Source of the DNA: an uncultured Gemmatimonas sp.
GTDB taxonomy: Bacteria; Gemmatimonadota; Gemmatimonadetes; Gemmatimonadales; GWC2-71-9
Direction: 5' to 3'
DNA length: 64,000 bases
Assembly: GCA_964535105.1 (NCBI GenBank)
Contig: CAZHSO010000001.1
Span: 1,779 to 65,778, forward strand
The translations under genes and the position numbers were made by a program. Below are positions 4,390 to 43,436 of this stretch, one piece after another. Numbering within the stretch: the first letter of the stretch is position 1; each line of letters starts with the position of its first letter. The notes beneath the pieces are model-generated. The model was not told the DNA's origin, did not search any database, and worked only from the letters and a program-made list of their open reading frames with translations.

Positions 4390-5343
4390 ATGATTCATCT
4401 TCTCGCCACCGGCGGCACCATCGCCATGCAGCGCAGCGCCGCCGCGGGCGGAAATGTCCCTGCCCTGGATGCCGAGCAGCTCGTGGCCGCGGTCGGAGGA
4501 CTCGGTAGCCGGAGCGAACTCCGGGTCGAGGACTGGGAGCGGCTGCCGGGCGTGCATCGTGGGCCGGCCGAGCTCTGGGCGCTGCGCAACCGGGTCGCCG
4601 AGATCGTGTCGGCGCCCGATGCGCCCTCCGGCGTCGTGATCACCCACGGGACCGATACTCTGGAAGAAACCGCGTACCTCGTCGCGCGCACCGTGCCGCT
4701 GCCGGTGCCGGTCGTGCTCACCGGCGCGATGCGTACCTCCAGCGACCCCGACTGGGATGGTCCCCGGAATCTCCGCGGGGCGGTGCAGGTGGCGCGCTCC
4801 CCCGCGAGCAGGAACCGCGGCGCCCTGGTGGTGTTCGCCTCCCGGATTCTCGATGGGCGTTTCGTCGCCAAGGTCGACACCTTTGCGCTCGAGGCCTTCG
4901 GCTCTCCCCACGCGCCGGCGGTCGGGACGGTCGACGATTCGGTGCGCTACGAGCGCCCGCCGGAGCCGCATCACCTCCTGCCGGCGCGGGATCTCTCCCC
5001 CCGCGTCGTGATCGTGCCGCTGATTCTGGGAGACGACGGCGCCCTGCTGGACATGGCTCGCGAACGGTTCGACGGGGTGGTGATCGAAGGCTTCGGACGC
5101 GGAAACATTCCGCCGGGAGCGCTGCCGGCGGTCCGCCGCTGGATCGATGCCGGCAAACCGGTCGTGCTGTCCAGCCGCTGTGCGGCGGGAGAAGTCGGCG
5201 GCGAATATGCCTTCCAGGGTGGCGGCGGCGAGCTCCTCAGAATGGGCGTGACTCCCGCCGGGCGCCGCACTCGGGCGCTCGCGCGGATGGAGCTCGTGCT
5301 CTCCCTCTCCGCCGGAGTCCCCTACGGAGCGACCGCCCAGTGA
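4390..5343 (+). CDS. L-asparaginase (type I / AnsA-like)
   Basis: N-terminus MIHLLATGGTIAM (TGGTIA nucleophile motif), then HGTDTLEETA. No signal peptide. Confidence 0.8.
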   Translation: MIHLLATGGTIAMQRSAAAGGNVPALDAEQLVAAVGGLGSRSELRVEDWERLPGVHRGPAELWALRNRVAEIVSAPDAPSGVVITHGTDTLEETAYLVARTVPLPVPVVLTGAMRTSSDPDWDGPRNLRGAVQVARSPASRNRGALVVFASRILDGRFVAKVDTFALEAFGSPHAPAVGTVDDSVRYERPPEPHHLLPARDLSPRVVIVPLILGDDGALLDMARERFDGVVIEGFGRGNIPPGALPAVRRWIDAGKPVVLSSRCAAGEVGGEYAFQGGGGELLRMGVTPAGRRTRALARMELVLSLSAGVPYGATAQ

Positions 5344-12163: not shown

Positions 12164-12238
12164 GGGCCCTTAGCTCAGCCTGGTTAGAGCAGCGGACTCA
12201 TAATCCGTAGCGCGCTGGTTCAAATCCAGCAGGGCCCA
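12164..12238 (+). tRNA. elongator-type tRNA with CAU anticodon (Met or lysidine-dependent Ile2)
   Basis: Manual cloverleaf: acceptor GGGCCCT/AGGGCCC, D arm GCTC/GAGC, anticodon stem GCGGA/TCCGT with loop CTCATAA, T arm GCTGG-TTCAAAT-CCAGC, discriminator A, no encoded CCA. It is not an initiator, because it has a 1:72 pair and lacks the GGG/CCC anticodon stem. Confidence 0.9.
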
Positions 12239-12244
12239 TGACAG

Positions 12245-12318
12245 AGGCAAAGTGGCAAAGAGGCAAAGAGGCAAGGAGGAAAGAGGCGACGACCTTGCCT
12301 CCTAGCCTCCTTGCCTCT
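12245..12318. terminator. GGCAAAG-repeat hairpin downstream of tRNA(CAU)
   Basis: aggcaaagtggcaaagaggcaaagaggcaaggagg followed by the complementary cctccttgcctct. The 13-bp stem is 12267-12279 / 12306-12318, with an inner small hairpin, then a gtgcttcttcgt tract. Confidence 0.6.
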
Positions 12319-12331
12319 GTGCTTCTTCGTA

Positions 12332-12375
12332 TGAGCGATGAACGGCTCGAACCCCCGACCTCGCGCATGTGAGGC
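12332..12375 (-). repeat. tRNA-Val 3'-half copy A (att-like direct repeat)
   Basis: 41/44 identical to 20969-21012, which runs from the discriminator through the T arm and variable loop to the anticodon loop CTCACAT of the intact tRNA-Val. No 5' half is present. Confidence 0.85.
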
Positions 12376-12632
12376 GGATGGGGACCGCGTACCTGCGTCG
12401 ATGCCTCCGTTGGCACATTGGCTGACACGGTCTCTCAGCGGCCGGTGGCGCGAGGTTGGGCTCAGCGCCCGGCGCGGGCGGAGGGAGTTCGCGTTCCGGG
12501 ACCCAATAGACCTCAAGAGGAATATTGCAAGGTTTTCTTATAGCCCGTCCATCGCGGCATCGAGGGGCCGGGGCGGAATCGCGGAGGGCAATGCCGGTCT
12601 TCGCTGGAGATGGCTGGAGACGCCACGCCCAA

Positions 12633-12662
12633 TTGACAATCCGTGTCTGAAGTTGGTAGGAT
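12633..12662 (+). promoter_or_regulatory. candidate sigma70-type promoter for the Big_1 lipoprotein operon
   Basis: TTGACA (12633-12638), an 18-nt spacer, then TAGGAT (12657-12662), about 25-90 nt upstream of the candidate starts. Pattern match only. Confidence 0.35.
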
Positions 12663-12686
12663 CCTCACAATTGGCGTATCTTCGTT

Positions 12687-14387
12687 TTGGACTGCGGGGC
12701 GCAGACTCCAGAGCATTCGGTAGGTCCGCTTTCACGACGGGCATTCACAGTGGCTACCCTATTCATCCAGAGTTTCGGTCGAGCACGCTTGGCGCTCCTC
12801 GGAGCGGCGATCGGATTCGCGAGCCTTGCCGGATGCGGCGAGACCACCGTCAATGCGCCGCTCCCGGCAGCGCGGGTGGAGGCCGTGGCGGGCCCGGCGC
12901 TGCTTGGTCCCGCGGGACTGCTCCTCCCCGATCCGATCGAGGTCCGCGTCTTCGGTAGCGACAATCAGGAGTTGCCAGGAGCGACCGTGACCTTCAGCGC
13001 CGCAAACGGAGGCTCCGTGAATCCCGCGACCGCGACGACCGATGGGAACGGTGTCGCCGGCACCCGCTGGACACTCGGGCAGACGGCTGGGCCGAACGTC
13101 CTTACGGCCACCGCCGCGAGCGGCGTATCCACTACGATCACCGCCACCGCGACTGCGGGCCGCGCGGCGACCGTCACCGGGCTAGCCGGTGCCAATCAGA
13201 CCGCGGCCGCCGGCACCGCCGTCCCGATCGCGCCCAGCGTGCGTGTCGTCGATGCCTTCGGCAATCTGGTGGCAGGCGCCCCGGTGACCTTCACGGTTCT
13301 CTCGGGCGGCGGCCGGGTGACCAATGGCCTGACCGTCACCAACTCGCAGGGCATCGCCACCGTGGGCAGCTGGATCCTCGGCCCCGCCGCGGGGGCACAG
13401 ACATTGGCCGCGAGGGTCGAAGAGAATGGGGTGACCAACAATCCGATCGTCTTCACCGCTACCGGGGTGGCGGGTCCGCCCGCCACGATGGTCGCTGTCT
13501 CCCAGACCACGCAGACGGCCCTGACCGGTTCCAACGTCAACGATCCGCCGAGCGTGATCGTGCGGGACGCGTCAGGCATACCGGTATCGGGGCTCGTCGT
13601 GACGTTCACCGTGACGGTCGGTGGTGGAAGTGTTGTCGGCTCGCCGGTCACGACCAACGCCAGCGGCGTTGCGACGCTCACCTCGTGGAGGCTCGGTGTG
13701 GTGGCCGGGCTCAACACCTTGATCGCCACCGCGCCCGGGCTTCCGAGCGTGACCTTCAACGCGACGGGCACCTCGGGCTCGCCGGCCACCGTCGTCGTGA
13801 GCGCCGGCGCCAATCAGGTAGCGCTGCAAGGTACAGCCGTGGCCCAGCCGCCGACCGTCAAGGTGACGGATGTCAACGGCAACGCGGTGGTCGGGGCGAC
13901 TGTGACGTTTGCCGTGATACTCGGCGGCGGGTCGGCCAATGGGTTGAACCAGGTCACCGACGTGCTCGGATTCGCGGGGGTTGGCAGCTGGACCCTCGGC
14001 AGCGGGGCCCCCAACACCCTCGGGGCGACGGTCACGGGGTCCGGCATCATCGGCAACCCGGTCACATTTACCGCCCAGTCGGCCACCCAGATCACGGTCG
14101 TGAGCGTCGTGCCCAGTGGGTCGATCGCCCTCGGGACGAACTTTGCCATCACGGTGCAGTTGCTGAACTCGGTCGCCGCCGCCGTCGCGCTGTCGGGCAG
14201 GCCGCTGACCATTTCCATCGCCTCGGGTGGCGGCATCCTCAACGGCACGCTGACACGGACCACGGATGCCAACGGCGCGGTGAGCTTCACGCTCCTCAAC
14301 GTGACCGGGGTGGCGGGCGTCCGCACCTTCACGATCACCGGGGCCGGGCTGCTTTCCGCGACGACCGGCGCGATCACATTTAACTGA
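12687..14387 (+). CDS. surface lipoprotein with five tandem Ig-like (Big_1 / invasin-type) modules
   Basis: Lipobox LLGAAIGFASLAGC, followed by five ~95-100 aa modules that each repeat the pattern ...P.V.V.D..GN.V.GA.VTF.V..GGG......TD..G.A.....LG...G...L.A.... GTG 12750 is an alternative start. Confidence 0.8.
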   Translation: MDCGAQTPEHSVGPLSRRAFTVATLFIQSFGRARLALLGAAIGFASLAGCGETTVNAPLPAARVEAVAGPALLGPAGLLLPDPIEVRVFGSDNQELPGATVTFSAANGGSVNPATATTDGNGVAGTRWTLGQTAGPNVLTATAASGVSTTITATATAGRAATVTGLAGANQTAAAGTAVPIAPSVRVVDAFGNLVAGAPVTFTVLSGGGRVTNGLTVTNSQGIATVGSWILGPAAGAQTLAARVEENGVTNNPIVFTATGVAGPPATMVAVSQTTQTALTGSNVNDPPSVIVRDASGIPVSGLVVTFTVTVGGGSVVGSPVTTNASGVATLTSWRLGVVAGLNTLIATAPGLPSVTFNATGTSGSPATVVVSAGANQVALQGTAVAQPPTVKVTDVNGNAVVGATVTFAVILGGGSANGLNQVTDVLGFAGVGSWTLGSGAPNTLGATVTGSGIIGNPVTFTAQSATQITVVSVVPSGSIALGTNFAITVQLLNSVAAAVALSGRPLTISIASGGGILNGTLTRTTDANGAVSFTLLNVTGVAGVRTFTITGAGLLSATTGAITFN

Positions 14388-15061
14388 TGACTATCACCAT
14401 GAGCCGCGAATCGATGAACGTGATGGCAACGGCGCGCCGGGCAGTCGGGCTCGTGGCCGGTGCGTTGATGGCGGCGACGGTCGCGAGTGCGCAAGTCCAG
14501 CAAACCGCGGGCGGGTGGCGGATCGGGGCCTCGACTGGCGGGTACGTGCCCCACTCCTCGCTCATCAGGGCCGCCGACTCCAACGACACGCGGCTTGGGG
14601 CCGGGCCGGCTTTCTCGCTCGACCTGCAGTATCTGGCATCCAGGTTCGTCTCGGTCTACGCGAATGGCCTCCTGAGCTTCGGGACGATCACATTCGGGAG
14701 CTCGATCCGCCCATCGGTGGTCGGCCCATCCAACCAGGTGATGCTGACGGCTGGCACGGCGGGGCTGCTGCTCACGGCCAACGGCTGGCTCGGAGAGCAT
14801 GTCCAGCCGACCCTCCGGCTCGGCGGCGGGTTCAAGTGGTACTCCTTCGATCTCACCGATACCCGGAGCCAGGTGCGGCCGACCGTTGACATCGGCCTGG
14901 GCTTTCGCGGTGTCGGCAGCGGACCAATCGAGGTGACGGCGGAGGTACGGTACCTGCTGAGCTCGTTCGATCAGGGCAAGCTGCCCACCCGAGGCATCGC
15001 CCCCCAGGCCCAGCGGCAGAACGACCTGGTCTTCGCGATCGGGTTCGGGATCCGACCCTAG
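14387..15061 (+). CDS. outer-membrane beta-barrel protein (OmpW/OprG-like size class)
   Basis: TGATG overlap with the upstream gene. Signal peptide ...AATVASAQ. Alternating hydrophobic beta-strand pattern with aromatic girdle residues over ~200 aa mature length. Confidence 0.6.
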   Translation: MTITMSRESMNVMATARRAVGLVAGALMAATVASAQVQQTAGGWRIGASTGGYVPHSSLIRAADSNDTRLGAGPAFSLDLQYLASRFVSVYANGLLSFGTITFGSSIRPSVVGPSNQVMLTAGTAGLLLTANGWLGEHVQPTLRLGGGFKWYSFDLTDTRSQVRPTVDIGLGFRGVGSGPIEVTAEVRYLLSSFDQGKLPTRGIAPQAQRQNDLVFAIGFGIRP

Positions 15062-15154
15062 TCAGTCGCGGGCCTGATGGTGATCCGGAGGGTGCTCGCC
15101 CGTCTTCGACAACCCGCTCCGGACGAAGCTGTTCCGCCATGTCCCAACGAGAAA

Positions 15155-15190
15155 GCCCCGTCCGCGTAAGCGATGACGGGGCTTCTTCGT
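15155..15190. terminator. bidirectional terminator-like hairpin (uninterrupted paralogue of the intron target site)
   Basis: GCCCCGTC (15155-15162) pairs with GACGGGGC (15175-15182), followed by TTCTTCGT. It is nearly identical to the hairpin at 16901-16929. Confidence 0.7.
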
Positions 15191-15197
15191 TCAAGCA

Positions 15198-15241
15198 TGG
15201 GCGCTGAGGGGCTCGAGCCCCCGACCTCGCACATGTGAGGC
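15198..15241 (-). repeat. tRNA-Val 3'-half copy B (att-like direct repeat)
   Basis: 41/44 identical to 20969-21012. Same orientation and same end points as copies A and C. Confidence 0.85.
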
Positions 15242-15596
15242 CGCTGAAGCCCGCGCACCGGCAACGACCGGCGCGAAAGAGCAACAACTTACGGATTTTT
15301 CCCCGCGTGGCTTCGCCGGCTCTCGCGGGACCCTTTGGCCCATAGCTGACACTCAGAGCGTCGGACGCTTTCGCTATTGCGGACGCATAAGTGCCTTCCC
15401 AGGTTGCCGTAGTCACCGTGCTGCGCTGGGCACGCCAGCCGAATGGCTGCTTGCGCCCGGCTGTTGTCCGCGAGAACGGGCGAGTTTCGCGCATCTCGCG
15501 ACGCCGACGCCCTGAGAGCTCCGCGACGCCGGGGGTGAGGGAAACGGGGTGAGTGCTGCAGTCGGCCCACCCCGTCCCTCTTTCCCTGCTTGCCGC

Positions 15597-16316
15597 CTAA
15601 TGCGCCGGGTGCGGGGACCTGGTGCAGTCTCCACCGATCTCAGTCGTCGAGATCGGGTAGAAGCGGAACTGCGCCAAGCGGAGCCCGGTGTTCTCGTAGT
15701 GCCAGAAGTAGTCTTCGCCCAGGCTCGAGAATAGCGGAACGAGCCCGAGCGTCCCGTCGACGTCGGCGCAGACCTGCAGCAACTGCTTGCTCACGTCGAT
15801 GAATTTCGGAGGAGTCACCTTGTTCAGCGGCACGATCAGGTCACCGGCATTGCACCAGGTCGAGGCGGTCGAGAACTCGGTGAAGCAGGTCCGGATGGTG
15901 GCGCTGCCCTTGTTACCGCCCAGGGCGCGCACCCACACGGAGTACGCAAGGGTCCCGTCCCCGTTGTCCGGGTTGGGGAGCCAGAAGTCGGCGTCGCCGT
16001 CGCTGTCCAGGCAGTTGTAGTCGGTCACCGCGTAATCGCCTTGGTGCAGGAAGATGTCGCACGCCGCAGTGGCGTTCTTGCCAAGCGGCACGAAGATCCG
16101 GTGCCCCTGGCTGTTGGAGTTGTCGACGCTATGGCCCTTCTCCACCCCGATGATGTTCAGCGTGAAGTGCCAGCCGCTGGGGGCGCCGTTTCCGGTCTCA
16201 CTGACGGCGGCGGAGGGCCGCAGCGGGTCCACGGTCGCCGTGGGCTCGCCGGTACAGGCGACCGCTGCCAGCGAGCCAAGGGCGAGAATCACTGCGACTG
16301 CTTTCGTTGGGTACAT
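15597..16316 (-). CDS. hypothetical Cys-rich lipoprotein
   Basis: Lipobox LALGSLAAVAC. Balanced amino-acid composition with 8 Cys and Asp-rich stretches (DSDGDADFWLPNPDNGDG). I recognise no family. A hairpin terminator lies downstream (~15543-15575). Confidence 0.65.
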   Translation of the reverse strand: MYPTKAVAVILALGSLAAVACTGEPTATVDPLRPSAAVSETGNGAPSGWHFTLNIIGVEKGHSVDNSNSQGHRIFVPLGKNATAACDIFLHQGDYAVTDYNCLDSDGDADFWLPNPDNGDGTLAYSVWVRALGGNKGSATIRTCFTEFSTASTWCNAGDLIVPLNKVTPPKFIDVSKQLLQVCADVDGTLGLVPLFSSLGEDYFWHYENTGLRLAQFRFYPISTTEIGGDCTRSPHPAH

Positions 16317-16357
16317 TGTGCACTCCTGTTGTTGGATTGTAATTCACCGGCCACCCT

Positions 16358-16400
16358 AGCCCCTTCGCTTCGCTCAGGGTGACAACCGCACAGGGTGACA
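16358..16400. repeat. GTCACCCTGAG-N3-GCGAAGGG family element (reverse orientation) plus duplicated cagggtgaca
   Basis: agccccttcgcttcgctcagggtgaca is the reverse complement of the motif also seen at 21097-21124 and 46368-46400. cagggtgaca recurs at 16391-16400. Confidence 0.7.
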
Positions 16401-16403
16401 GCC

Positions 16404-16646
16404 TCAGGCCGTTGCGAGCTGGCCCTCTTGCTGCTGGACTGCTTCCGCGCGGAACTCGAAGTGGGCCGCCTGCACGGTCTCGAAATCGCGCGCCGTCTTG
16501 AGCCGGGTGATCCGCCGCCCGAAAATATCCACTCGGCGCACGGTCACACCGGGAAAAATCGGCGACACGTCGTACCACAGACCAGCACTCAGACGCGGAT
16601 ACCGCAAACTGTATTCGGGCTTCAATCGGGCTTGCATGTCGGGCAT
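16404..16646 (-). CDS. hypothetical 80-aa protein
   Basis: Internal ATG of listed ORF 16404..16769 (MPDMQARLKPEYSLRYPRLSAGLWYDV...), with GAGG about 10 nt upstream. Its composition is more protein-like than the antisense ORF. No family recognised. Confidence 0.3.
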   Translation of the reverse strand: MPDMQARLKPEYSLRYPRLSAGLWYDVSPIFPGVTVRRVDIFGRRITRLKTARDFETVQAAHFEFRAEAVQQQEGQLATA

Positions 16647-16900
16647 GGGTCGGCCTCGGGCGCAGGGAATCGCAGGGATTGCTAGTATCAGCGGGCGTGC
16701 AGGAGACCGCAAGATTCGAATAAGCCGACAGTGTTCAGTTTTTTGGCGACGGAATGCCGTTCTCAGCACGCCGTGAGGATCATTGACCGTCCCAGTGCCC
16801 GGGGCTACAGTCGCGACTCGCTTTCGGTATTCTCTTCATCTACGAGCGCATTCATCTGCACCACCGCACGACGCGCCGCGCGGCTGTATGACAACACGAA

Positions 16901-16937
16901 AGCCCCGTCCGCGTAAGCGAGGACGGGGCTTCTTCTT
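16901..16937 (+). terminator. intrinsic-terminator-like hairpin plus T tract serving as the group IIC intron insertion site
   Basis: GCCCCGTCC (16901-16909) pairs with GGACGGGGC (16921-16929), followed by TTCTTCTT. The intron's GTGTG starts at the next base. Confidence 0.75.
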
Positions 16938-17573
16938 GTGTGCCCAGCATGAAAGGTGACTTGGAGGTGCAAGTCCTCTGGGGAGTGGGTCGTAGCGACC
17001 CAAGCAAGCCGCAAGGCCGCGACCGTGAGGAGACGGCTGAAAGAAGCGGGGAGCGAATCTGCGAGCCGAGGAACACGGATCGGATCTGAGGCGCTGCCGA
17101 GCAGGGCGAGCGGGCACGTAACCGCGAAGCCCTCACGACCAAGACTCCGGCGGCGTAAATCCGGCGGTTGCGCGGAGACGGCCACCATTCTTACCTGGGG
17201 AGATCTCGCCTCACGCCTGAACGGACGACGCCGACGGGCAGCATCCAGCGGCGGAGCGAGACGTCAGCCGAGGCCATAGTACCGGGGGGCGCTCCACTCG
17301 GGAAGGGCCGAACGGAAAGGCGAGTAGATGCCGCGAATCTCGATCGTAGTCCCCAGAAATCCGCGCAGGTCGGCGGAGCTCGTGTCGGAGGGTAGGGTGA
17401 ATCCCGAGAGTACGGCACAGTGGGGAAACGCTACGATGGGCGCGGAGGGAGCCCCTGTACTCAGGTCCGCTTCTTCAGGGAGCCTCAACTTTCCGAACCG
17501 CCGTATACGGACCCGTACGTACGGTGGTGTGGGAGGGGACCAGCGGGGATCACCCGCTGGCCCCTATCCCGAT
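16938..17573 (+). mobile_element. ORF-less group II intron, class C (IIC), 636 nt
   Basis: - 5' end is GUGUGCCCAGCAUG.
- Domain V lies at ~17497-17530 (CCGCCGUAUACG-GACC-CGUACGUACGGUGG) with a CGC triad and a 2-nt bulge.
- Domain VI lies at 17531-17570 with a bulged A at 17566, 7 nt before the 3' end (...CCGAU).
- Internal blocks GAGGAACACGG, CCAUUCUUACCUGGGGAG and GCCAUAGUACC match my recollection of the Oceanobacillus iheyensis IIC intron.
- No ORF capable of encoding a reverse transcriptase is present.
- The ends are confirmed by the empty paralogous site at 15155-15205. Confidence 0.85.
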
Positions 17574-17580
17574 TCAATCA

Positions 17581-17624
17581 TGGGCGATGAGGGGTTCGAA
17601 CCCCCGACCTCGCGCATGTGAGGC
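17581..17624 (-). repeat. tRNA-Val 3'-half copy C (att-like direct repeat)
   Basis: 43/44 identical to 20969-21012. Identity stops abruptly inside the anticodon stem. Confidence 0.9.
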
Positions 17625-17781
17625 CGCTGGGGCACCGTGCACCAGCGCCGAAGGGCGTGTACCAACAACGACTTCGCCAATCCCAGCATCCGCTAGCGTT
17701 TGCCAGCGCCGGCTGGCTTGAAGCAGCATCTGTGACAACGGCGGGGGCTGGCCGGGCGCTTCTTCGGCGTCGCCAACGCGT

Positions 17782-20763
17782 CTACCGGCGGGCGCGGGCG
17801 CGGGCGCGCACCGCCACCAACTCGCGGATTTCGCTCAGCAGCTCTTCGCAGCCGCGCCCGCCCTTCTGTACGATCGCTTCCACGCCGCCGTTGAGCCGCC
17901 GGCGATCCTCCTCGGTGAGCACCTTCGCCGTGATGACGATCACGGAGAGCGTCGCCCGCGCTGGCTCGGCGCGGAGTTCCTCGAGGAACGCGAACCCGTC
18001 CATTTCGGGCATCATCAAGTCGAGGAGGACGATCTCTGGCGCGTGGTCGCGCAGGCGCTCGAGGCCGACGCGGCCGTTCTCCGCTTCGTCAACGGTCCAG
18101 CCGGCGCGCTCGAGCGTGCGGCGAACCATCAGGCGCGTGGCCTCGTCGTCCTCGACCACCAGCGCCCGCGCGCCCGCAGCGGCCTGTGCGCAACGTTGGA
18201 CCGCGGCGAGGAGGCGGGCCCGGTCGATCGGCTTCGAGAGATACTCCGTCGCGCCGAGAGCGAAGCCCATGCGCGTCTCATCCACGATCGTAGCCATGAC
18301 CACCGGGATGTCGGCCAGGGTGGCGTCGGATTTCAGCGCGGTGAGCACCGCCCAGCCGTCCATGCCGGGCATCATCACGTCGAGCGTGATCACGTCGGGG
18401 CGGAAGGCGCGCGCGCGCGCGATACCCGTCTTGCCGTCGGCCGCCTCCTCCACGCGATACCCCGCTTTGGTGAGGTGGCGCTGCAGGAGCGTGCGTGCCG
18501 CCGCGTCGTCGTCAATCACGAGCACCGTCAGCGCGCCCGCGCCCGAGGCGGACTCCGCGCGGACCTCCAGGGCCGCGGGCTCGTGGGGAAGCTGCGCGGG
18601 TAGCCGGACCGAAAACGTGGACCCCTTGCCGACGACGCTTTCCACGGCGATGTCGCCACCCATCAGTTCGCAAAACCGCTTGCTGATGGCGAGCCCAAGC
18701 CCAGTGCCGCCGTAGCGGCGCGAGGTCGACGCCTCGGCCTGCGAAAAAGCCTGGAAGAGCCGCGTCATCTGTTCCGGCGTCATCCCGATGCCGGTGTCGC
18801 TCACGCGGAACACGAGCCACGCCGCACCGTCGGCCGCGTCGCGCCGCAGCTCCAGCGTGATCACGCCGTCTTCGGTGAACTTGCTCGCGTTCGACAGCAG
18901 GTTGAGCAGGACCTGGCGCGTGCGGGTGAGGTCGGCGTGCATCAAGCCGGCGTCGGCCGCGATGCGCACGTCGAGCCGATTGCGGTTCTTCGCCACCAGA
19001 GGCCGCATGGTTTCCACGACGGCGTGGATCGCCTCGCGCACGTCGAAGGTCTCGGGCTGAAACTCCATCCTGCCGGCCTCGATCTTGGAGAGATCGAGCA
19101 CGTCGTTGATGAGCGTCAGCAAGTGCTTCCCGGCGACCTGGATCTTCTGGAGGTCGGGGATGAGATCGGGCTGTCCCCGCTCCGCCGCTTCTTCCTGCAG
19201 CATTTCGCTGTAGCCGAGGATGGCATTGAGCGGCGTGCGCAACTCGTGGCTCATTCCCGCGAGGAATTGGCTCTTGGCGGAATTGGCCGCTTCCGCGTCG
19301 TGGCGGGCCTCGAGCAATTCCGAAACGTCGTGGTACAGCGCCATAAAACCCACGCGCCGCCCGTCCACGAACACCGGGACGCTATAGAAGTCCACCTCGA
19401 CCAGCGTGCCGTCCTTGCGGAGCCGCGGGCTGGTGCCGTGTACCGGCTCGTTGAGCCCCTGGAGCGAGTACGCGACGGCCGCCGCGCGCATCTCCTCATT
19501 GGTCACCATGTCATCGAGGTTGCGGCCGATCGCCTCGGCGCTCGTGTACCCGAACAGTTTCTCGAATCCGGGATTGCACGACACGACGTCCTGCCGTTCG
19601 TCCACCACGACGATGGCGACCGGGCTATTGGCCAGCAGTTGTTCGAAGTACTGACGCTGCCGGTGGGCGTCGGAGTAGAGCCGGGCGTTCTCAATGGCGA
19701 TTGCCGCCTGCGGGGCGAACAAGTTGAGCACGCGGAGATGTTCGGAACCAAACTGCTTGGCGGGATCCGAGTGCCAGACGCTCATGGCGCCCACCAGGCG
19801 GCGCCCCACCAGCAGCGGCACAACCACGAGGGCGTGGATGTCCATTGTGGCGTATTGCGCCGAGCGACCCCTCCATTGGCCGTAGTCGGGAATGATGAGT
19901 GGCTCGAGCGTTTCCGCGGCGAAACCCATCGCGCCTTCGCCGATCTTGAGACGCGTACCGGTGGTGCTGGTGGCCGTCCCGTAGTTCGCGGCGACAAGTA
20001 GTTCCGCGGTTTGCTCCGAGTAGGTGGCCAGTTCGCCGCCAGTCACCGCGAGCAGCGCGACAGCGCGGTCGAGGACACCCTGGAGCAGTTTGGACAACTC
20101 CAGCTCGGCGGACAGAGCGGCGAGCGTTTCGATAAGCGCCTGCTGCTCATCGGCGCGACGGCGCTCCGTGTCGAGCAGGCGGCGCTGGGTCTCGAGTAGA
20201 TGAGCGCGCGCGAGCGCGATGCTCGTCTGGATGGCGGCGGCGGTGAGGATCTCGAAGTCCTCTGGGGCAAACGCGTTCGGTCGGCGGCTCTGCACCATCA
20301 GGACGCCGATGGTGTTGTACCCAACCCGCAGCGGAAGGTCCACTTCGGAGCCCGCGTCGTAACTCGAGACGTACGCGGGATCGCGAAGGACGTCCGGCGT
20401 ATAATGCAGCTTGCCGTCGAGCAGGGGCCGCTCGCTCAGCCCCTGTCCCTGGGGAATGCGGTATCCAGCCGTGGCCTGTGGCCATCCCACGCTCGCCTCG
20501 AGGACGCGGTCGTTCGTGGTTTCGTCCACCAGGAAGAGCGCGACCAGTTCGTATCCCAGCGCGTCATCGTGTAGCCCGTTGACCACGCGCTTGCAGATCG
20601 CGTGCGGGTCGATCCCCGCGGCGACCTCGCCGCTCAACCGGAGGAGCGCGGAAAGTCGGCGTGCCTGGTTTCCCGCGGTCGTCGCGGCCGGTGTGGCGGA
20701 ACGTGGGGAGGAAGGCTTGGCTCCGGCGGCGCGGGAATGGGTGCCGGGTCGCTGCTTGGGCAT
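17782..20763 (-). CDS. cytoplasmic hybrid sensor histidine kinase (GAF-GAF-PAS-HisKA-HATPase-REC-REC)
   Basis: H-box SHELRTPLNAILGY, the G-boxes DTGIGM and GTGLGLAI, and two receiver domains (VLVIDDD...DVMMPGMDG; ALVVEDD...DLMMPEMDG). No transmembrane segments seen. Confidence 0.9.
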   Translation of the reverse strand: MPKQRPGTHSRAAGAKPSSPRSATPAATTAGNQARRLSALLRLSGEVAAGIDPHAICKRVVNGLHDDALGYELVALFLVDETTNDRVLEASVGWPQATAGYRIPQGQGLSERPLLDGKLHYTPDVLRDPAYVSSYDAGSEVDLPLRVGYNTIGVLMVQSRRPNAFAPEDFEILTAAAIQTSIALARAHLLETQRRLLDTERRRADEQQALIETLAALSAELELSKLLQGVLDRAVALLAVTGGELATYSEQTAELLVAANYGTATSTTGTRLKIGEGAMGFAAETLEPLIIPDYGQWRGRSAQYATMDIHALVVVPLLVGRRLVGAMSVWHSDPAKQFGSEHLRVLNLFAPQAAIAIENARLYSDAHRQRQYFEQLLANSPVAIVVVDERQDVVSCNPGFEKLFGYTSAEAIGRNLDDMVTNEEMRAAAVAYSLQGLNEPVHGTSPRLRKDGTLVEVDFYSVPVFVDGRRVGFMALYHDVSELLEARHDAEAANSAKSQFLAGMSHELRTPLNAILGYSEMLQEEAAERGQPDLIPDLQKIQVAGKHLLTLINDVLDLSKIEAGRMEFQPETFDVREAIHAVVETMRPLVAKNRNRLDVRIAADAGLMHADLTRTRQVLLNLLSNASKFTEDGVITLELRRDAADGAAWLVFRVSDTGIGMTPEQMTRLFQAFSQAEASTSRRYGGTGLGLAISKRFCELMGGDIAVESVVGKGSTFSVRLPAQLPHEPAALEVRAESASGAGALTVLVIDDDAAARTLLQRHLTKAGYRVEEAADGKTGIARARAFRPDVITLDVMMPGMDGWAVLTALKSDATLADIPVVMATIVDETRMGFALGATEYLSKPIDRARLLAAVQRCAQAAAGARALVVEDDEATRLMVRRTLERAGWTVDEAENGRVGLERLRDHAPEIVLLDLMMPEMDGFAFLEELRAEPARATLSVIVITAKVLTEEDRRRLNGGVEAIVQKGGRGCEELLSEIRELVAVRARARARR

Positions 20764-20925
20764 CGTCGCGTCGAGGAATAAGGAATCGGAATTCCCTTCG
20801 CCCCTGGCAACCTACAACGCCTGGCGCGGGCTGTCCACTCGGCGCCCCACGCCGGCCCTCCGTAGGAGCGGGGAACAGACGCAATTCTTGTGACGATCTC
20901 GCACCTACCTTGAAACAACGAACGA

Positions 20926-20953
20926 GCCCCGCCAGCGAAACCGCTGGCGGGGC
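20926..20953 (-). terminator. terminator hairpin downstream of tRNA-Val
   Basis: GCCCCGCCAGCG-AAAC-CGCTGGCGGGGC. On the minus strand it is followed by TCGTTCGTTGTTTC. Confidence 0.7.
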
Positions 20954-20968
20954 ATTTCACTTCCGCAG

Positions 20969-21042
20969 TGGGCGATGAGGGGCTCGAACCCCCGACCTCG
21001 CGCATGTGAGGCGCGCGCTCTAACCAGCTGAGCTAATCGCCC
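20969..21042 (-). tRNA. tRNA-Val (anticodon CAC)
   Basis: Reverse complement GGGCGAT-TA-GCTC-AGCTGGTTA-GAGC-G-CGCGC-CTCACAT-GCGCG-AGGTC-GGGGG-TTCGAGC-CCCTC-ATCGCCC-A folds as a canonical cloverleaf. CCA is not encoded. Confidence 0.92.
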
Positions 21043-21083: not shown

Positions 21084-21170
21084 GTCAACGGAGAGTGTCA
21101 CCCTGAGGGTAGCGAAGGGCTCGGGCGGACAAATGCTTTTCCCGTTGACCGTTGACCGTTCACCGTTGAC
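21084..21170. repeat. composite intergenic element: gtcaacgg ... GTCACCCTGAGGGTAGCGAAGGGC core ... (CGTTSAC)4 heptamer array
   Basis: gtcaacgg at 21084-21091 is complementary to the array ccgttgaccgttgaccgttcaccgttgac at 21142-21170. The core motif lies at 21097-21124. Confidence 0.8.
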
Positions 21171-31546: not shown

Positions 31547-34045
31547 TTGTTTCAACCTGACAGATTTCCACGCCGGATGACTGGCCTGGAATCGGAAACA
31601 ACCCGGGACGGGGTGTCGGCGCATAGGAGCGCCGACACCCCGTCCCCTTTGGCGGGCGAGGGATCCCTCGAGGCCCTCGCGGTTCTCGAGTTCGATCGCG
31701 TTCTCGAGCTTGTCGCCGGTCACGCCGCGGGTGAGCTCGGAGCCGAGCGGGTTCGCGCCCGCCGCCCCTCGGCGGATCGCGACTGGATCGAAGGGGAGCT
31801 CGCGCCGGTAGCCGAGCTGCTTTCGTTCTTCGCGCAGGGCGGCGGGGTCGACGCGTTTCCGGTTCCATCCCTCCGTGGAGTCATCGGCCGCCTCAGGCTC
31901 GAGGGCAGCGTCCTCGAGGGACATGAGCTGGCTGCGATTCATCGCACCCTGGTCGCGGCGCGCGATGCCGCGGCCGAGCTCAAGCGCATCGCCGAGGAGG
32001 CGCCGCGCGTCGCTCTGCTGCGCGCCCCGGTCCCCGAGCAGGCAATCGAGCGCCGGCTGGCCCAGTCGGTGGACGAGCAGGGAGAGCTGCTCGATTCGGC
32101 GAGCCCCGGTCTCCTCCGCGCGCGGCGCGAAGTGCACCACGCCCGCGAACGCCTGGTCAAGAAGCTGGAAGCGATCCAGCGCGGACTCGATGCCGCCGCC
32201 GCGGGCGGAGCCGCCCCCGTCACCGTGCGGAACGGGCGCTACGTCATCCCGGTCCGTCGCGATTCCCGCAGCCGTCCCGATGGCATCGTCCATGACGAAT
32301 CGGCCAGCGCCGGGACGCTCTTTATCGAGCCGACCGCCGCGATCGAGCTCGGCAACGCCCTGCGCGAGGCGATGGCCGCTGCCGAGCGGGAAGCGCTGCG
32401 GGTGCTGCTCGAGCTCACCGAGCTGCTGCGCCCCCACGCTGATCTCCTCCGCGGCGCGCACGAGATGTGCGTGGCGCTCGACGACCTGGTCGCGCGGGCG
32501 CGTTATGCCCGCGGCGTGAGAGGAAGCGTTCCCGCCGTCGCCCCGGCAGGGGCGGGACTCGTGCTGCGCAATGCCCGACACCCTCTCCTGCTTGGCCGCG
32601 GCGTCGACGTGGTGCCGTTCGACCTCACGCTCGATGAGCGGGAACGCACGCTCCTGATCAGCGGGCCGAACACGGGCGGGAAGACGGTGCTGCTCAAGAC
32701 GGTCGGATTGGCCGCCGCGATGGCCCAGAGCGGCATCGCCCCTCCAGTTGGCGAAGGAAGCATCCTCCCGGTCTTCCGGCGGATGGCGGCCGACATCGGC
32801 GACCACCAATCGATCACGGCCGACCTCTCGACCTTCAGCGCGCACCTCGCCACCCTTCGCGGTGTGCTGGAGGATGCCGACGCGGGAACGCTGGTCCTGA
32901 TCGATGAAATCGGGAGCGGGACCGACCCTGCCGAGGGTGGCGCGCTCGCCGGCGCCGCCCTTCGCGCGCTGACCCGCCGGGGCGCCCGGACCATTGCCAC
33001 GACGCACCTGGGCGCGCTCAAGGTGCTGGCAACCCAGACGGAGGGTGTGGTCAACGGATCGCTGCAGTTCGACGCCGAGCGACTCGCGCCGACCTACCGC
33101 TTCCAGAAGGGAACGCCGGGCCGGTCGTACGGACTCGCCATCGCGCGGCGACTCGGCATCAACGAAGCCGTACTCGCCGATGCGGAAAGCCGCGTCTCCG
33201 GCGCGGAGCGATCTCTCGACACCCTGCTCGAGGCCGCGGAAGCACGGGAACGAAAGCTCGCCGCCGACCAGGAGACGCTCACCGCCCGTCTGGCGGATTC
33301 CGAACGGGAGACGGCGCGCCTCACTCGTGAAGCCGAGCTGCAGCGGGCGCGGGACGCGGAGCTCAGGGGTCGCGAACGGGACGCCGAGCGCAAGGCCCGC
33401 GCGGAGGCACGGAAGTTCCTGCTCGATGCCCGCGAGCGCGTGGAGGAGGCGCTCCGCGCCGCGTCGGAAGCTGCCGATGATGACCAGGCCAGGGAAGCAC
33501 GCCGACTGCTCGAAGAGGCCATTCGCCTCGAGGGGGAGGCGCCGCAGGAAGTGGCGGTGCCCGAGTCGGCGCCGGTGGCGGGCGCGGGCAGCGTGGCGGT
33601 GGGCCAGCGGGTCAGGCTCGCGACGGGGAGCACCGGAGAGCTGCTCGAGCTGAGATCGGATGGCAAGGCGGTGGTGGTGGCGGGGGCAATACGGATAGTG
33701 GTTCCCGCGGAGACCTTGGTGGCTGCCCCGGGGAAGGGGGAGGGGGGAAGGGGGAAGGGGTCTCCCTCCTCCCCCTTCCCCCTTCCCCCTTCCCCCGCGA
33801 CCGCCATGGAAATCGACCTCCGCGGCATGCGCGGCGACGAGGCCGCCGCGGTCACGGTCGCCGCCCTCGACGCGGCGGTCCTCGCGGACAATCCTTTCCT
33901 CCGCATCATCCATGGCATGGGCACCGGCGTGGTGCGGGAGACGGTGCGGCGCGTGCTGGCCGCCGACCGGCGGGTGGCGAGGTTCGATTTCGCGCCCCGC
34001 AACCAGGGCGGTACCGGCGTCACCATCGCGGAGTTCACGTCGTGA
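31547..34045 (+). CDS. mutS2: endonuclease MutS2 (MutS domain plus C-terminal Smr)
   Basis: LEFDRVLELVAGHA N-terminus, Walker A GPNTGGKTV, DEIGSGTDP, a coiled-coil linker and an Smr domain (IDLRGMRGDEA...IIHGMGTG). Start uncertain (31547 or ATG 31577). Confidence 0.9.
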   Translation: MFQPDRFPRRMTGLESETTRDGVSAHRSADTPSPLAGEGSLEALAVLEFDRVLELVAGHAAGELGAERVRARRPSADRDWIEGELAPVAELLSFFAQGGGVDAFPVPSLRGVIGRLRLEGSVLEGHELAAIHRTLVAARDAAAELKRIAEEAPRVALLRAPVPEQAIERRLAQSVDEQGELLDSASPGLLRARREVHHARERLVKKLEAIQRGLDAAAAGGAAPVTVRNGRYVIPVRRDSRSRPDGIVHDESASAGTLFIEPTAAIELGNALREAMAAAEREALRVLLELTELLRPHADLLRGAHEMCVALDDLVARARYARGVRGSVPAVAPAGAGLVLRNARHPLLLGRGVDVVPFDLTLDERERTLLISGPNTGGKTVLLKTVGLAAAMAQSGIAPPVGEGSILPVFRRMAADIGDHQSITADLSTFSAHLATLRGVLEDADAGTLVLIDEIGSGTDPAEGGALAGAALRALTRRGARTIATTHLGALKVLATQTEGVVNGSLQFDAERLAPTYRFQKGTPGRSYGLAIARRLGINEAVLADAESRVSGAERSLDTLLEAAEARERKLAADQETLTARLADSERETARLTREAELQRARDAELRGRERDAERKARAEARKFLLDARERVEEALRAASEAADDDQAREARRLLEEAIRLEGEAPQEVAVPESAPVAGAGSVAVGQRVRLATGSTGELLELRSDGKAVVVAGAIRIVVPAETLVAAPGKGEGGRGKGSPSSPFPLPPSPATAMEIDLRGMRGDEAAAVTVAALDAAVLADNPFLRIIHGMGTGVVRETVRRVLAADRRVARFDFAPRNQGGTGVTIAEFTS
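33730..33796. repeat. G-run / C-run imperfect palindrome embedded in-frame in mutS2
   Basis: ggggaagggggaggggggaagggggaagggg (33730-33760), tctc, then cctcctcccccttcccccttcccccttccccc (33765-33796). It translates as GKGEGGRGKGSPSSPFPLPPSP in the linker just before the Smr domain. Confidence 0.85.
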
Positions 34046-42727: not shown

Positions 42728-43360
42728 ATGCCAGTGCCCGTGCGCAAGATCGCCGAATCCACCGTCCGCCGTCTCTCGCTCTATTTGCGGTTCCTCGAGG
42801 AATTCGAGGAGCAGGGAGCGACGACCGTCAGCTCCGAGGCGCTCGCGTCGCTGGGGGGGACGACGTCCGCCCAGGTACGGAAGGATCTTTCCTTCTTCGG
42901 GTCCTTTGGCAAGCGCGGGCTCGGCTACCAGGTTCCCGCCCTCAAGAGCCGGCTACGCGACATTCTCGGCCTCGATCGGCGATACCGCGTCGTCGTGGTG
43001 GGGGCGGGGAAGATCGGACGCGCCCTGGTCCAGTACGGCGGGTTCCGCGCCCGAGGATTCGACCTGGTCGCCATCTACGATAACGATCCGAAAAAGTTCG
43101 GCCGGGAGTGGAACGGTCTCCTGGTTCGCGACGTCCGCGAGCTGGAGCGTGATCTCGCGCGCGAGCAGGCGGATATTGCCGCGGTCGTCACCCCCGCCGA
43201 CGCGGCGCAGGGTGTCGCCGACCGCCTGGTCAAATGCGGAATCAGCGCCATCCTGAATTTTGCCCCGGTGCGGCTGCAAGTTCCCGAGCCGGTGACGGTG
43301 AAGTCGGTCAATCTCGTGCTGGAGCTGGAGGCGTTGTCGTACGTACTCGCTAACCGCTAG
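42728..43360 (+). CDS. rex: redox-sensing transcriptional repressor Rex
   Basis: ATG 42728. TVRRLSLYLRFL..., SSEALA...AQVRKDLSFFGSFGKRGLGY and Rossmann VVVVGAGKIGRAL. The listed start 42512 lies inside ksgA. Confidence 0.9.
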   Translation: MPVPVRKIAESTVRRLSLYLRFLEEFEEQGATTVSSEALASLGGTTSAQVRKDLSFFGSFGKRGLGYQVPALKSRLRDILGLDRRYRVVVVGAGKIGRALVQYGGFRARGFDLVAIYDNDPKKFGREWNGLLVRDVRELERDLAREQADIAAVVTPADAAQGVADRLVKCGISAILNFAPVRLQVPEPVTVKSVNLVLELEALSYVLANR

Positions 43361-43417
43361 CGAAGAGCGAGTCGCGAGGAGCGAAGCGGTTGTTCCTCTT
43401 CGCTCCTCGCTCTTCGC
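43360..43417 (+). terminator. long GC-rich hairpin after rex
   Basis: gcgaagagc...gaggagcgaag (43360-43386) pairs with cttcgctcctcgctcttcgc (43398-43417). It starts at the last base of the rex stop codon and is followed by a T-rich stretch. Confidence 0.55.
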
Positions 43418-43436
43418 TACTCCCTTATCTTGATTC

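Follow-up and report, generated by a model that had tools for sequence, protein, structure and literature searches.

Tandem integrase-less segments at a tRNA-Val gene of an uncultured Gemmatimonas sp.: probable remnants of successively integrated elements

How do three truncated copies of a tRNA-Val gene come to lie one behind another in a bacterial chromosome, separated by short segments that carry one or two genes each and no intact integrase? The question is raised by a stretch of 64,000 nt from an uncultured Gemmatimonas sp. (GenBank assembly GCA_964535105.1, contig CAZHSO010000001.1, positions 1,779 to 65,778 of the forward strand), referred to below as the window and numbered from its first letter. 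The array is quite probably a tandem series of decayed integrative-element remnants, resembling cis-mobilisable elements (CIMEs), that were left by at least three successive integrations into the 3' half of tRNA-Val. This answer is drawn from the repeats, the DNA joined to them, the relic of an integrase gene, and the condition of the same site in related species.

Two tRNA genes were found in the window by ARAGORN; they are convergent and enclose the array. The left boundary is tRNA(CAT) (12164-12238, + strand; Rfam tRNA, 70.6 bits), and the right one is the intact tRNA-Val(CAC) (20968-21042, - strand; 66.7 bits), an attachment (att) site of putative attL type. The repeat unit is 44 nt long (20969-21012) and runs from the discriminator base of tRNA-Val to the anticodon loop. 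It recurs on the - strand, as direct repeats, in copy A (12332-12375; 41/44; blastn-short E 3e-14), copy B (15198-15241; 41/44; E 5e-13) and copy C (17581-17624; 43/44; E 8e-18); the same search with the 44-mer gave no fourth half-copy in the window. The segments from A to B, from B to C and from C to the intact gene (cassettes A, B and C) measure 2.8, 2.3 and 3.3 kb, respectively. In all copies the identity comprises the discriminator base, the T arm, the variable loop, the 3' strand of the anticodon stem and the full 7-nt anticodon loop, and it ends in the 5' strand of the anticodon stem, 2 nt in (copies B and C) or 3 nt in (copy A). The 7-nt crossover core is identical in all four copies, and each cassette is bounded by copies of the tRNA half; the flanking stems are mostly intact, with substitutions in the acceptor and T stems of copies A and B. 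An earlier note, made from the letters of this DNA alone, had given the same coordinates and counts, the same end of identity inside the anticodon stem, the lowest divergence for the copy nearest the intact gene, the same interval lengths and the same pair of convergent tRNA genes; all of this was recovered, ARAGORN and Rfam being in agreement on the tRNA genes.

At its anticodon end, each copy is joined to a non-tRNA arm: arm A at 12376-12417 (~40 nt), arm B at 15242-15283 and arm C at 17625-17737. About 40 nt are common to the three (A-C 29/45, z 4.3; B-C 29/43, z 4.6, versus shuffles), arms A and B being more diverged than arm C; no resemblance to the 5' part of the real tRNA was found for any copy. 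On the opposite side of copy B, directly downstream in the tRNA sense, stands an element-type terminator hairpin (15145-15188; putative P' flank of element A). This region is 83.5% identical over 97 nt to the tRNA-Val-plus-terminator of a related locus (L010) and is near-identical to the DNA by the intact tRNA-Val of another (L101). A second hairpin of this type (16892-16935; putative P' flank of element B) matches the first at 93-97% identity, and an intron stands between it and copy C. The third (20916-20959) is held by the putative P' flank of element C (20882-20967), downstream of the intact tRNA-Val; this flank is 81% identical over 168 nt to L010 and 85% over 213 nt to L017. No element-type terminator is present on the 3' side of copy A. 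There, a long imperfect hairpin (12243-12326; inverted repeat with 34-nt arms, 82% complementary, with 8-nt GGCAAAGA-type periodic repeats) is followed by the convergent tRNA(CAT); it is the terminator that tRNA(CAT) shares with the original 3' end of tRNA-Val (B' flank).

Terminators of the element type accompany integrase genes in relatives. In L010, L090 and L092 this PfkB-linked tRNA-Val is followed directly downstream by a gene (int) for a tyrosine integrase of 441-443 aa (PF00589; 78-85% identity among the three). The terminator that separates int from the tRNA gene is homologous to 15145-15188, 16892-16935 and 20916-20959. The backbone of such intact relatives consists of int, AAA_25, helix-turn-helix (HTH) proteins and a large protein of 841-960 aa; relaxase or conjugation genes were not seen in the intact relatives examined. 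No intact integrase was detected in the array or the rest of the 64-kb window (tblastn with a relative's integrase; profile hidden Markov model (HMM) from ~100 family members), and none was obtained from the cassettes by Pfam, tblastn and profile-HMM searches. Directly beside the terminator of copy B lies a 48-nt relic of a tyrosine-integrase gene (15094-15141, + strand). Its 48 nt align with int of L010 at 81% identity (E 1e-6) and encode PVFDNPLRTKLFRHV versus PVFDAPLRTKMFRHGY of the integrase (12/14 aa; int residues 352-365); int of L090, L092 and L093 is matched at these residues too. The relic is oriented like int in the relatives, as expected for the int of an element. Other backbone relics were sought in the array by tblastn and blastn with all open reading frames (ORFs) of five intact elements, and none was found. 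As read from the sequence, the relic in cassette A is direct evidence of the decay of a larger element. It had been claimed earlier that the cassettes hold no mobility gene; this is correct for an intact integrase and overlooks the relic in cassette A as well as an ORF-less group II intron in cassette B.

The history of the site was followed in relatives. Among species with a PfkB 83-90% identical to that of the window, the interval between tRNA-Val and tRNA(CAT) is hypervariable (0.12 kb in L011; elsewhere 1.2, 1.4, 2.1, 3.4, 6 and >9 kb) and of unrelated content; in several relatives lower-GC (guanine plus cytosine) DNA lies downstream of tRNA-Val. L011 is an empty site in which tRNA-Val and tRNA(CAT) converge on a 120-nt hairpin, and it matches the layout of copy A, hairpin and tRNA(CAT) in the window. 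L101 is colinear with positions 12692-15241 of the window (88% nt identity over 2555 nt) and has an intact tRNA-Val at the position of copy B, with the same terminator as copy B; cassettes B and C are absent. The order in L101 is GT4, tRNA(CAT), lysyl oxidase, a Big_1 gene, the gene of a 224-aa protein (88% identical to that of the window), terminator and intact tRNA-Val. From this state of L101 it follows that copy B completed the working tRNA gene until the arrival of cassettes B and C, and that these two are specific to the species of the window. In L006, the closest relative by PfkB (90%), the 224-aa gene stands beside an intact tRNA-Val, again with cassettes B and C absent. The alignment of orthologous intervals that had been suggested as a check gave a variable presence of the cassettes (L011 empty; L101 and L006 without B and C). 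Repeated tRNA halves were not found among 83 related loci, so the triple array is not clade-wide.

Cassette A itself calls for a separate reading. It carries, on the + strand, a gene of a Big_1-repeat lipoprotein (12687-14387; 566 aa for the longest ORF, 532 aa in public calls; Pfam Big_1 E 7e-23; lipobox LAGC) and that of the 224-aa signal-peptide protein (14387-15061), which resembles outer membrane proteins (OMPs) and opacity proteins and has no Pfam match. The latter has 195 homologues of graded identity (58-96%), some of them named 'opacity protein-like surface antigen' at JGI. Since homologues are graded and the cargo adjoins tRNA-Val in L101 and L006, it appears to be an old resident: judged by sequence comparison, the cargo of cassette A behaves like long-resident DNA common to related species and not like a recently moved mini-cassette, and the earlier description of cassette A as a mobile mini-cassette was abandoned.

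The following history is proposed. The parent elements would belong to one tyrosine-integrase integrative-element family of Gemmatimonadales; the status of this family as integrative and conjugative elements (ICEs) or integrative and mobilisable elements (IMEs) is unproven. The incoming attP would comprise an arm of ~40-110 nt, the tRNA from anticodon loop to 3' end, and the terminator hairpin. Crossover in the anticodon loop would rebuild a working tRNA from the copy of the element, and the previous 3' half would be pushed outward and joined to the arm of the new element. Copy A, together with the long hairpin and tRNA(CAT), would represent the original chromosomal end (attR-type) with the oldest displaced half; copies B and C would be internal hybrid junctions, made of the arm of a later element and the half and terminator of an earlier one; and the intact gene would be attL, composed of the chromosomal 5' part and an element-supplied 3' half. 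Deletion of integrase and backbone would have left remnants of 2.3-3.3 kb with one or two cargo genes, presumably immobile at present, and a group II intron would have invaded the terminator of remnant B later. The divergence gradient of the copies and the more diverged arms A and B fit this order of insertion. The view of the earlier note that the repeats are scars of tyrosine-integrase att sites left by successive insertions is thereby retained, given the empty site (L011), the pre-insertion site (L101) and the integrases of L010, L090 and L092; its label of CIME-like remnants is a fair one, as the cassettes fit the definition of CIMEs in PMC5704250 in their att bounds and their lack of integrase.

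Several observations weigh against this history. A backbone relic is seen in cassette A only, and because cassettes B and C show none, loss of the integrase by deletion can only be presumed for these two. The GC content of the cargo (67.5%, 64.1% and 67.5% in A, B and C) is near that of the host flanks (68.3 ± 2.1%). In L101 both copy A and its arm are missing, their place being taken by a lysyl-oxidase gene. In L006 (5017-5090) there is, immediately past the stop codon of the 224-aa gene, a long GCAAAG-repeat hairpin of copy-A type and, after it, the intact tRNA-Val, element-type terminator and integrase relic both being absent at this gene. No simple series of events links L006, L101, L089 and the window, which leaves the history of cassette A unordered. 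The search for an integrase-bearing element with the same attP, recommended in the earlier note, was successful in part: L010 and L092 share the terminator flank next to the tRNA (P') in a comparison that covers the tRNA-proximal half of attP only; the integrase-bearing tRNA-Val elements exceed the 10-kb flanks retrieved, and the distal arm lies beyond the DNA compared.

Among the other explanations, the least improbable, though still an unlikely one, holds that the units are non-autonomous mini-elements (an attP-like module with one or two genes) moved in trans, now or recently, by an integrase of the L010 family. All four copies have an intact crossover loop of 7 nt and largely intact flanking stems, and conserved ends occur with different cargo: arm C is found again in L089 beside other genes, and the P' flank of element C recurs in L017 beside a homocysteine S-methyltransferase gene, with no integrase. 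Homology between the kinase of cassette C and its 91% orthologue (L098) stops precisely at the stop codon, giving the cargo sharp limits. Moreover, a second mosaic of small units with such modules at their borders, again without an integrase, is found in L089. Its order begins with tRNA(CAT), lysyl oxidase, an element-type terminator and a tRNA-Val half with arm; positions 2166-2323 are 79% identical over 160 nt to arm C plus half, and the first 43 nt of arm C match two L089 arms (35/43, z 8.5; 31/44, z 6.0), one of which is beside a tRNA-Ile half. A separate module (735-862), in which the terminator and the family arm accompany a tRNA-Ile(GAT) 3' half, lies far from any tRNA-Ile gene; because the same arm is found at Val and Ile halves, this arm is a property of the element family, not of one tRNA. 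An integrase was not found in L089. The promoter and 5' half of tRNA(CAT) are duplicated there downstream of the intact gene (4921-4965), which is not expected from 3'-half integration. Against movement in trans, the integrase relic of cassette A shows that a larger element decayed, an integrase of the L010 family is absent from the window, the cargo of cassette A is stably inherited across species, a 636-nt intron splits junction C, and the 83 related loci are without repeated halves. The junctions are also kept in all same-species contigs: part of the window has a 99.94% identical counterpart in a JGI contig, the A/B junction is identical in four metagenome contigs, and recombinant or empty junctions were not seen among these few contigs, all of which have the parental junctions. 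Scans with the exact pattern gave L089 as the only further metagenome locus; in viral contigs the attR-type junction pattern had 0 matches and the L010 integrase had no relatives. Whether B and C shrank in place or came as small non-autonomous units is a narrower matter, on which the second reading is alive with a small chance. The broader proposal that Gemmatimonadales harbour integrase-less mini-elements shuffled in trans between tRNA genes by L010-family integrases appears somewhat more doubtful still; such mini-elements may consist of an attP-like module of ~140-250 bp (arm, half and terminator) and one or two genes, and their targets may be the tRNA genes for Val and Ile and possibly the CAT tRNA. 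It is hinted at by the family arm at both Val and Ile halves, by the differing cargo between conserved ends (cassette C versus L089 and L017), by the limits of the kinase homology and by the L089 mosaic.

Far less probable is an origin of the repeats without site-specific recombination, either by a segmental duplication that took in the tRNA 3' end and its terminator or by the scattering of tRNA-derived pseudogenes through some other mechanism. Local duplication could indeed repeat the terminator together with the half, as is seen at copies B and C, but all copies stop at the same position of the anticodon loop and are joined there to a shared non-tRNA arm, the same terminator goes with integrase genes in relatives, the integrase relic is at the expected place, and the intervening segments are mutually unrelated. 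Hardly any weight, and slightly less than to duplication, is given to the idea that the half-tRNA modules are kept for a function, as terminators, processing signals or tRNA-like RNAs that regulate adjacent genes. A strong hairpin terminator does stand at a gene end in each module; however, copies A and B have acceptor- and T-stem substitutions, the arm hairpin is not kept between copies, relatives including the syntenic L101 are without the modules, and the Rfam scan gave no family besides tRNA and intron. A conserved RNA hairpin in the arms, or a tRNA-like fold of arm and half, was likewise considered and rejected, the pairing being different between copies. An integron gene-cassette array was rejected as well: no integrase is present in the window, and the cassettes are bordered by tRNA halves instead of attC sites.

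Decay of integrated elements, as preferred here, has well-described counterparts. Among the tRNA att sites of tyrosine integrases, Williams (2002) reportedly distinguished a class at the anticodon loop; the window is like this class in its identity block from anticodon loop to tRNA 3' end and in the loop and stem that form a symmetric core, and there is no difference in principle. In tandem accretion of ICEs and IMEs, the partners in tandem are mostly decayed elements (PMC5704250). Accretion of ICESt1/ICESt3 in Streptococcus thermophilus is alike in that elements integrate site-specifically, one after another, at the 3' end of a single target gene, in its internal hybrid att sites, and in members that lost integrase and transfer genes and kept the att repeats; the window differs in its host (Gemmatimonadota), in its very small remnants (2.3-3.3 kb), in having no functional element in the array and no visible driver of cis-mobilisation, and in intact relatives that, as far as examined, show no relaxase or conjugation genes. 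The tandem islands at ssrA of Dehalococcoides are bounded by direct repeats of the 3' end, and many of them are without an integration module and are possibly CIMEs or fixed remnants (PMC3146451). These arrays are alike in that islands lie downstream of one small-RNA gene with additional conserved sequence beside the repeat; they use a serine recombinase (CcrB homologue), a tmRNA target and a 20-bp repeat, whereas the window points to a tyrosine integrase with crossover in a tRNA anticodon loop and has a 44-nt repeat. The earlier opinion that the array is unusual and of no standard feature type is not borne out, since tandem arrays whose decayed members lack an integrase and are bordered by 3' repeats of a tRNA or tmRNA gene are well known from the literature (PMC5704250, PMC3146451).

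The remaining cargo is carried on the - strand. Cassette B encodes a 239-aa lipoprotein of no Pfam family (15597-16316; GC at third codon positions 0.88; lipobox AVAC), and cassette C a 993-aa hybrid histidine kinase with the domain order GAF-GAF-PAS-HisKA-HATPase-REC-REC (17782-20763; Pfam), whose orthologues (91% and 81% aa identity) stand in unrelated contexts without tRNA. The cargo assignments made earlier from the letters (adhesin-like lipoprotein plus OMP, orphan lipoprotein, hybrid kinase) agree with Pfam, lipoboxes and homologues.

Cassette B further contains the ORF-less group II intron of 636 nt (16938-17573, + strand), which begins 2-3 nt past the terminator 16892-16935 and its T-rich tail. 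Three Rfam models match it above their gathering thresholds: RF02001 (104.5 bits, E 4e-21), RF01998 (37.3 bits) and RF00029 (41.5 bits; gathering score 40). Domain V (~17497-17529) has a 2-nt bulge and domain VI (17531-17569) a bulged A; the z value of the fold is -4.0. After excision of the intron in silico, the flanks rejoin to an arrangement of terminator, spacer and half like that of copy B. No intron-encoded reverse transcriptase is present, the intron having only short ORFs of non-coding composition, and there is no second group II intron in the window. Introns of class C (IIC) insert directly downstream of a terminator-like inverted repeat followed by T's (PMC1702495). Common to both are the site after a terminator stem-loop, the compact ribozyme and the canonical domains V and VI; the intron of the window differs in being ORF-less and may be called class-C-like from its site and domains.

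Long hairpins with arms of 31-34 nt were observed also at 33730-33795 and 43359-43425, with purine-rich periodic repeats of a different motif each time. Such hairpins seem to be the habitual style of intergenic terminator in this genome, with analogues by tRNA-Val in L011 and L006; a dispersed REP-like (repetitive extragenic palindromic) or MITE-like (miniature inverted-repeat transposable element) nature of the hairpin at 12243-12326 was rejected, its motif being found at that place only.

The tRNA(CAT) gene has C4-G69 and C5-G68 and no initiator-type GGG/CCC anticodon stem; it is probably a tRNA-Ile2 (lysidine type) and not a Met tRNA, presumably close to E. coli ileX. In L014 (11145-11189) a 45-nt tRNA(CAT) 3' half, identical to that of the window, lies 13 nt behind tRNA-Val, with foreign DNA of 62% GC beyond it; because of this half-copy, tRNA(CAT) would also be an anticodon-loop integration site. 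In L054 an integrase homologue adjoins tRNA(CAT). One contig (L095:1-11367) starts and ends in the same tRNA-Arg(CCG) 3' half and encodes int, HTH, AAA_25 and a 960-aa protein; it is probably a complete 11.3-kb member of the integrase family. Close integrase relatives (68-73% identity) have switched their target tRNA. A comparison of the L095 arm with those of the window gave only a displaced GCCGCTG motif in common, and no claim is made from it.

In distant Gemmatimonadales (L020-L083), PfkB, tRNA(CAT) and tRNA-Val lie on one strand, ~100-200 nt apart; in the clade of the window (L004-L024), tRNA-Val follows PfkB and tRNA(CAT) is convergent. This change of order points to rearrangement at the hotspot. 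Upstream of tRNA-Val in L101 (10970-15311), genes for cupin, UPF0261 and PEP_hydrolase proteins replace PfkB; because this upstream DNA differs, both sides of tRNA-Val appear to be rearranged between related species. The array also accounts for the breaks of assemblies at this locus, where public contigs end inside the repeats. Two Logan contigs from different samples (L002, L003) both stop at 21149, 107 nt before tRNA-Val and outside the 44-mer; strain variation and coverage are possible causes.

No new mechanism is involved: the array is a clean but ordinary example of the textbook pathway of accretion and decay. It documents one tRNA gene as a repeated landing pad in an uncultured, little-studied phylum. 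The integrase family and the attP layout defined for Gemmatimonadales could aid the annotation of genomic islands in metagenome-assembled genomes. Should the mini-elements considered above exist, they would be a tRNA-based analogue of the gene-cassette system. On the history favoured here, elements would have been whittled down to single adaptive genes, for surface proteins and a sensor kinase, that became stable content of the chromosome.

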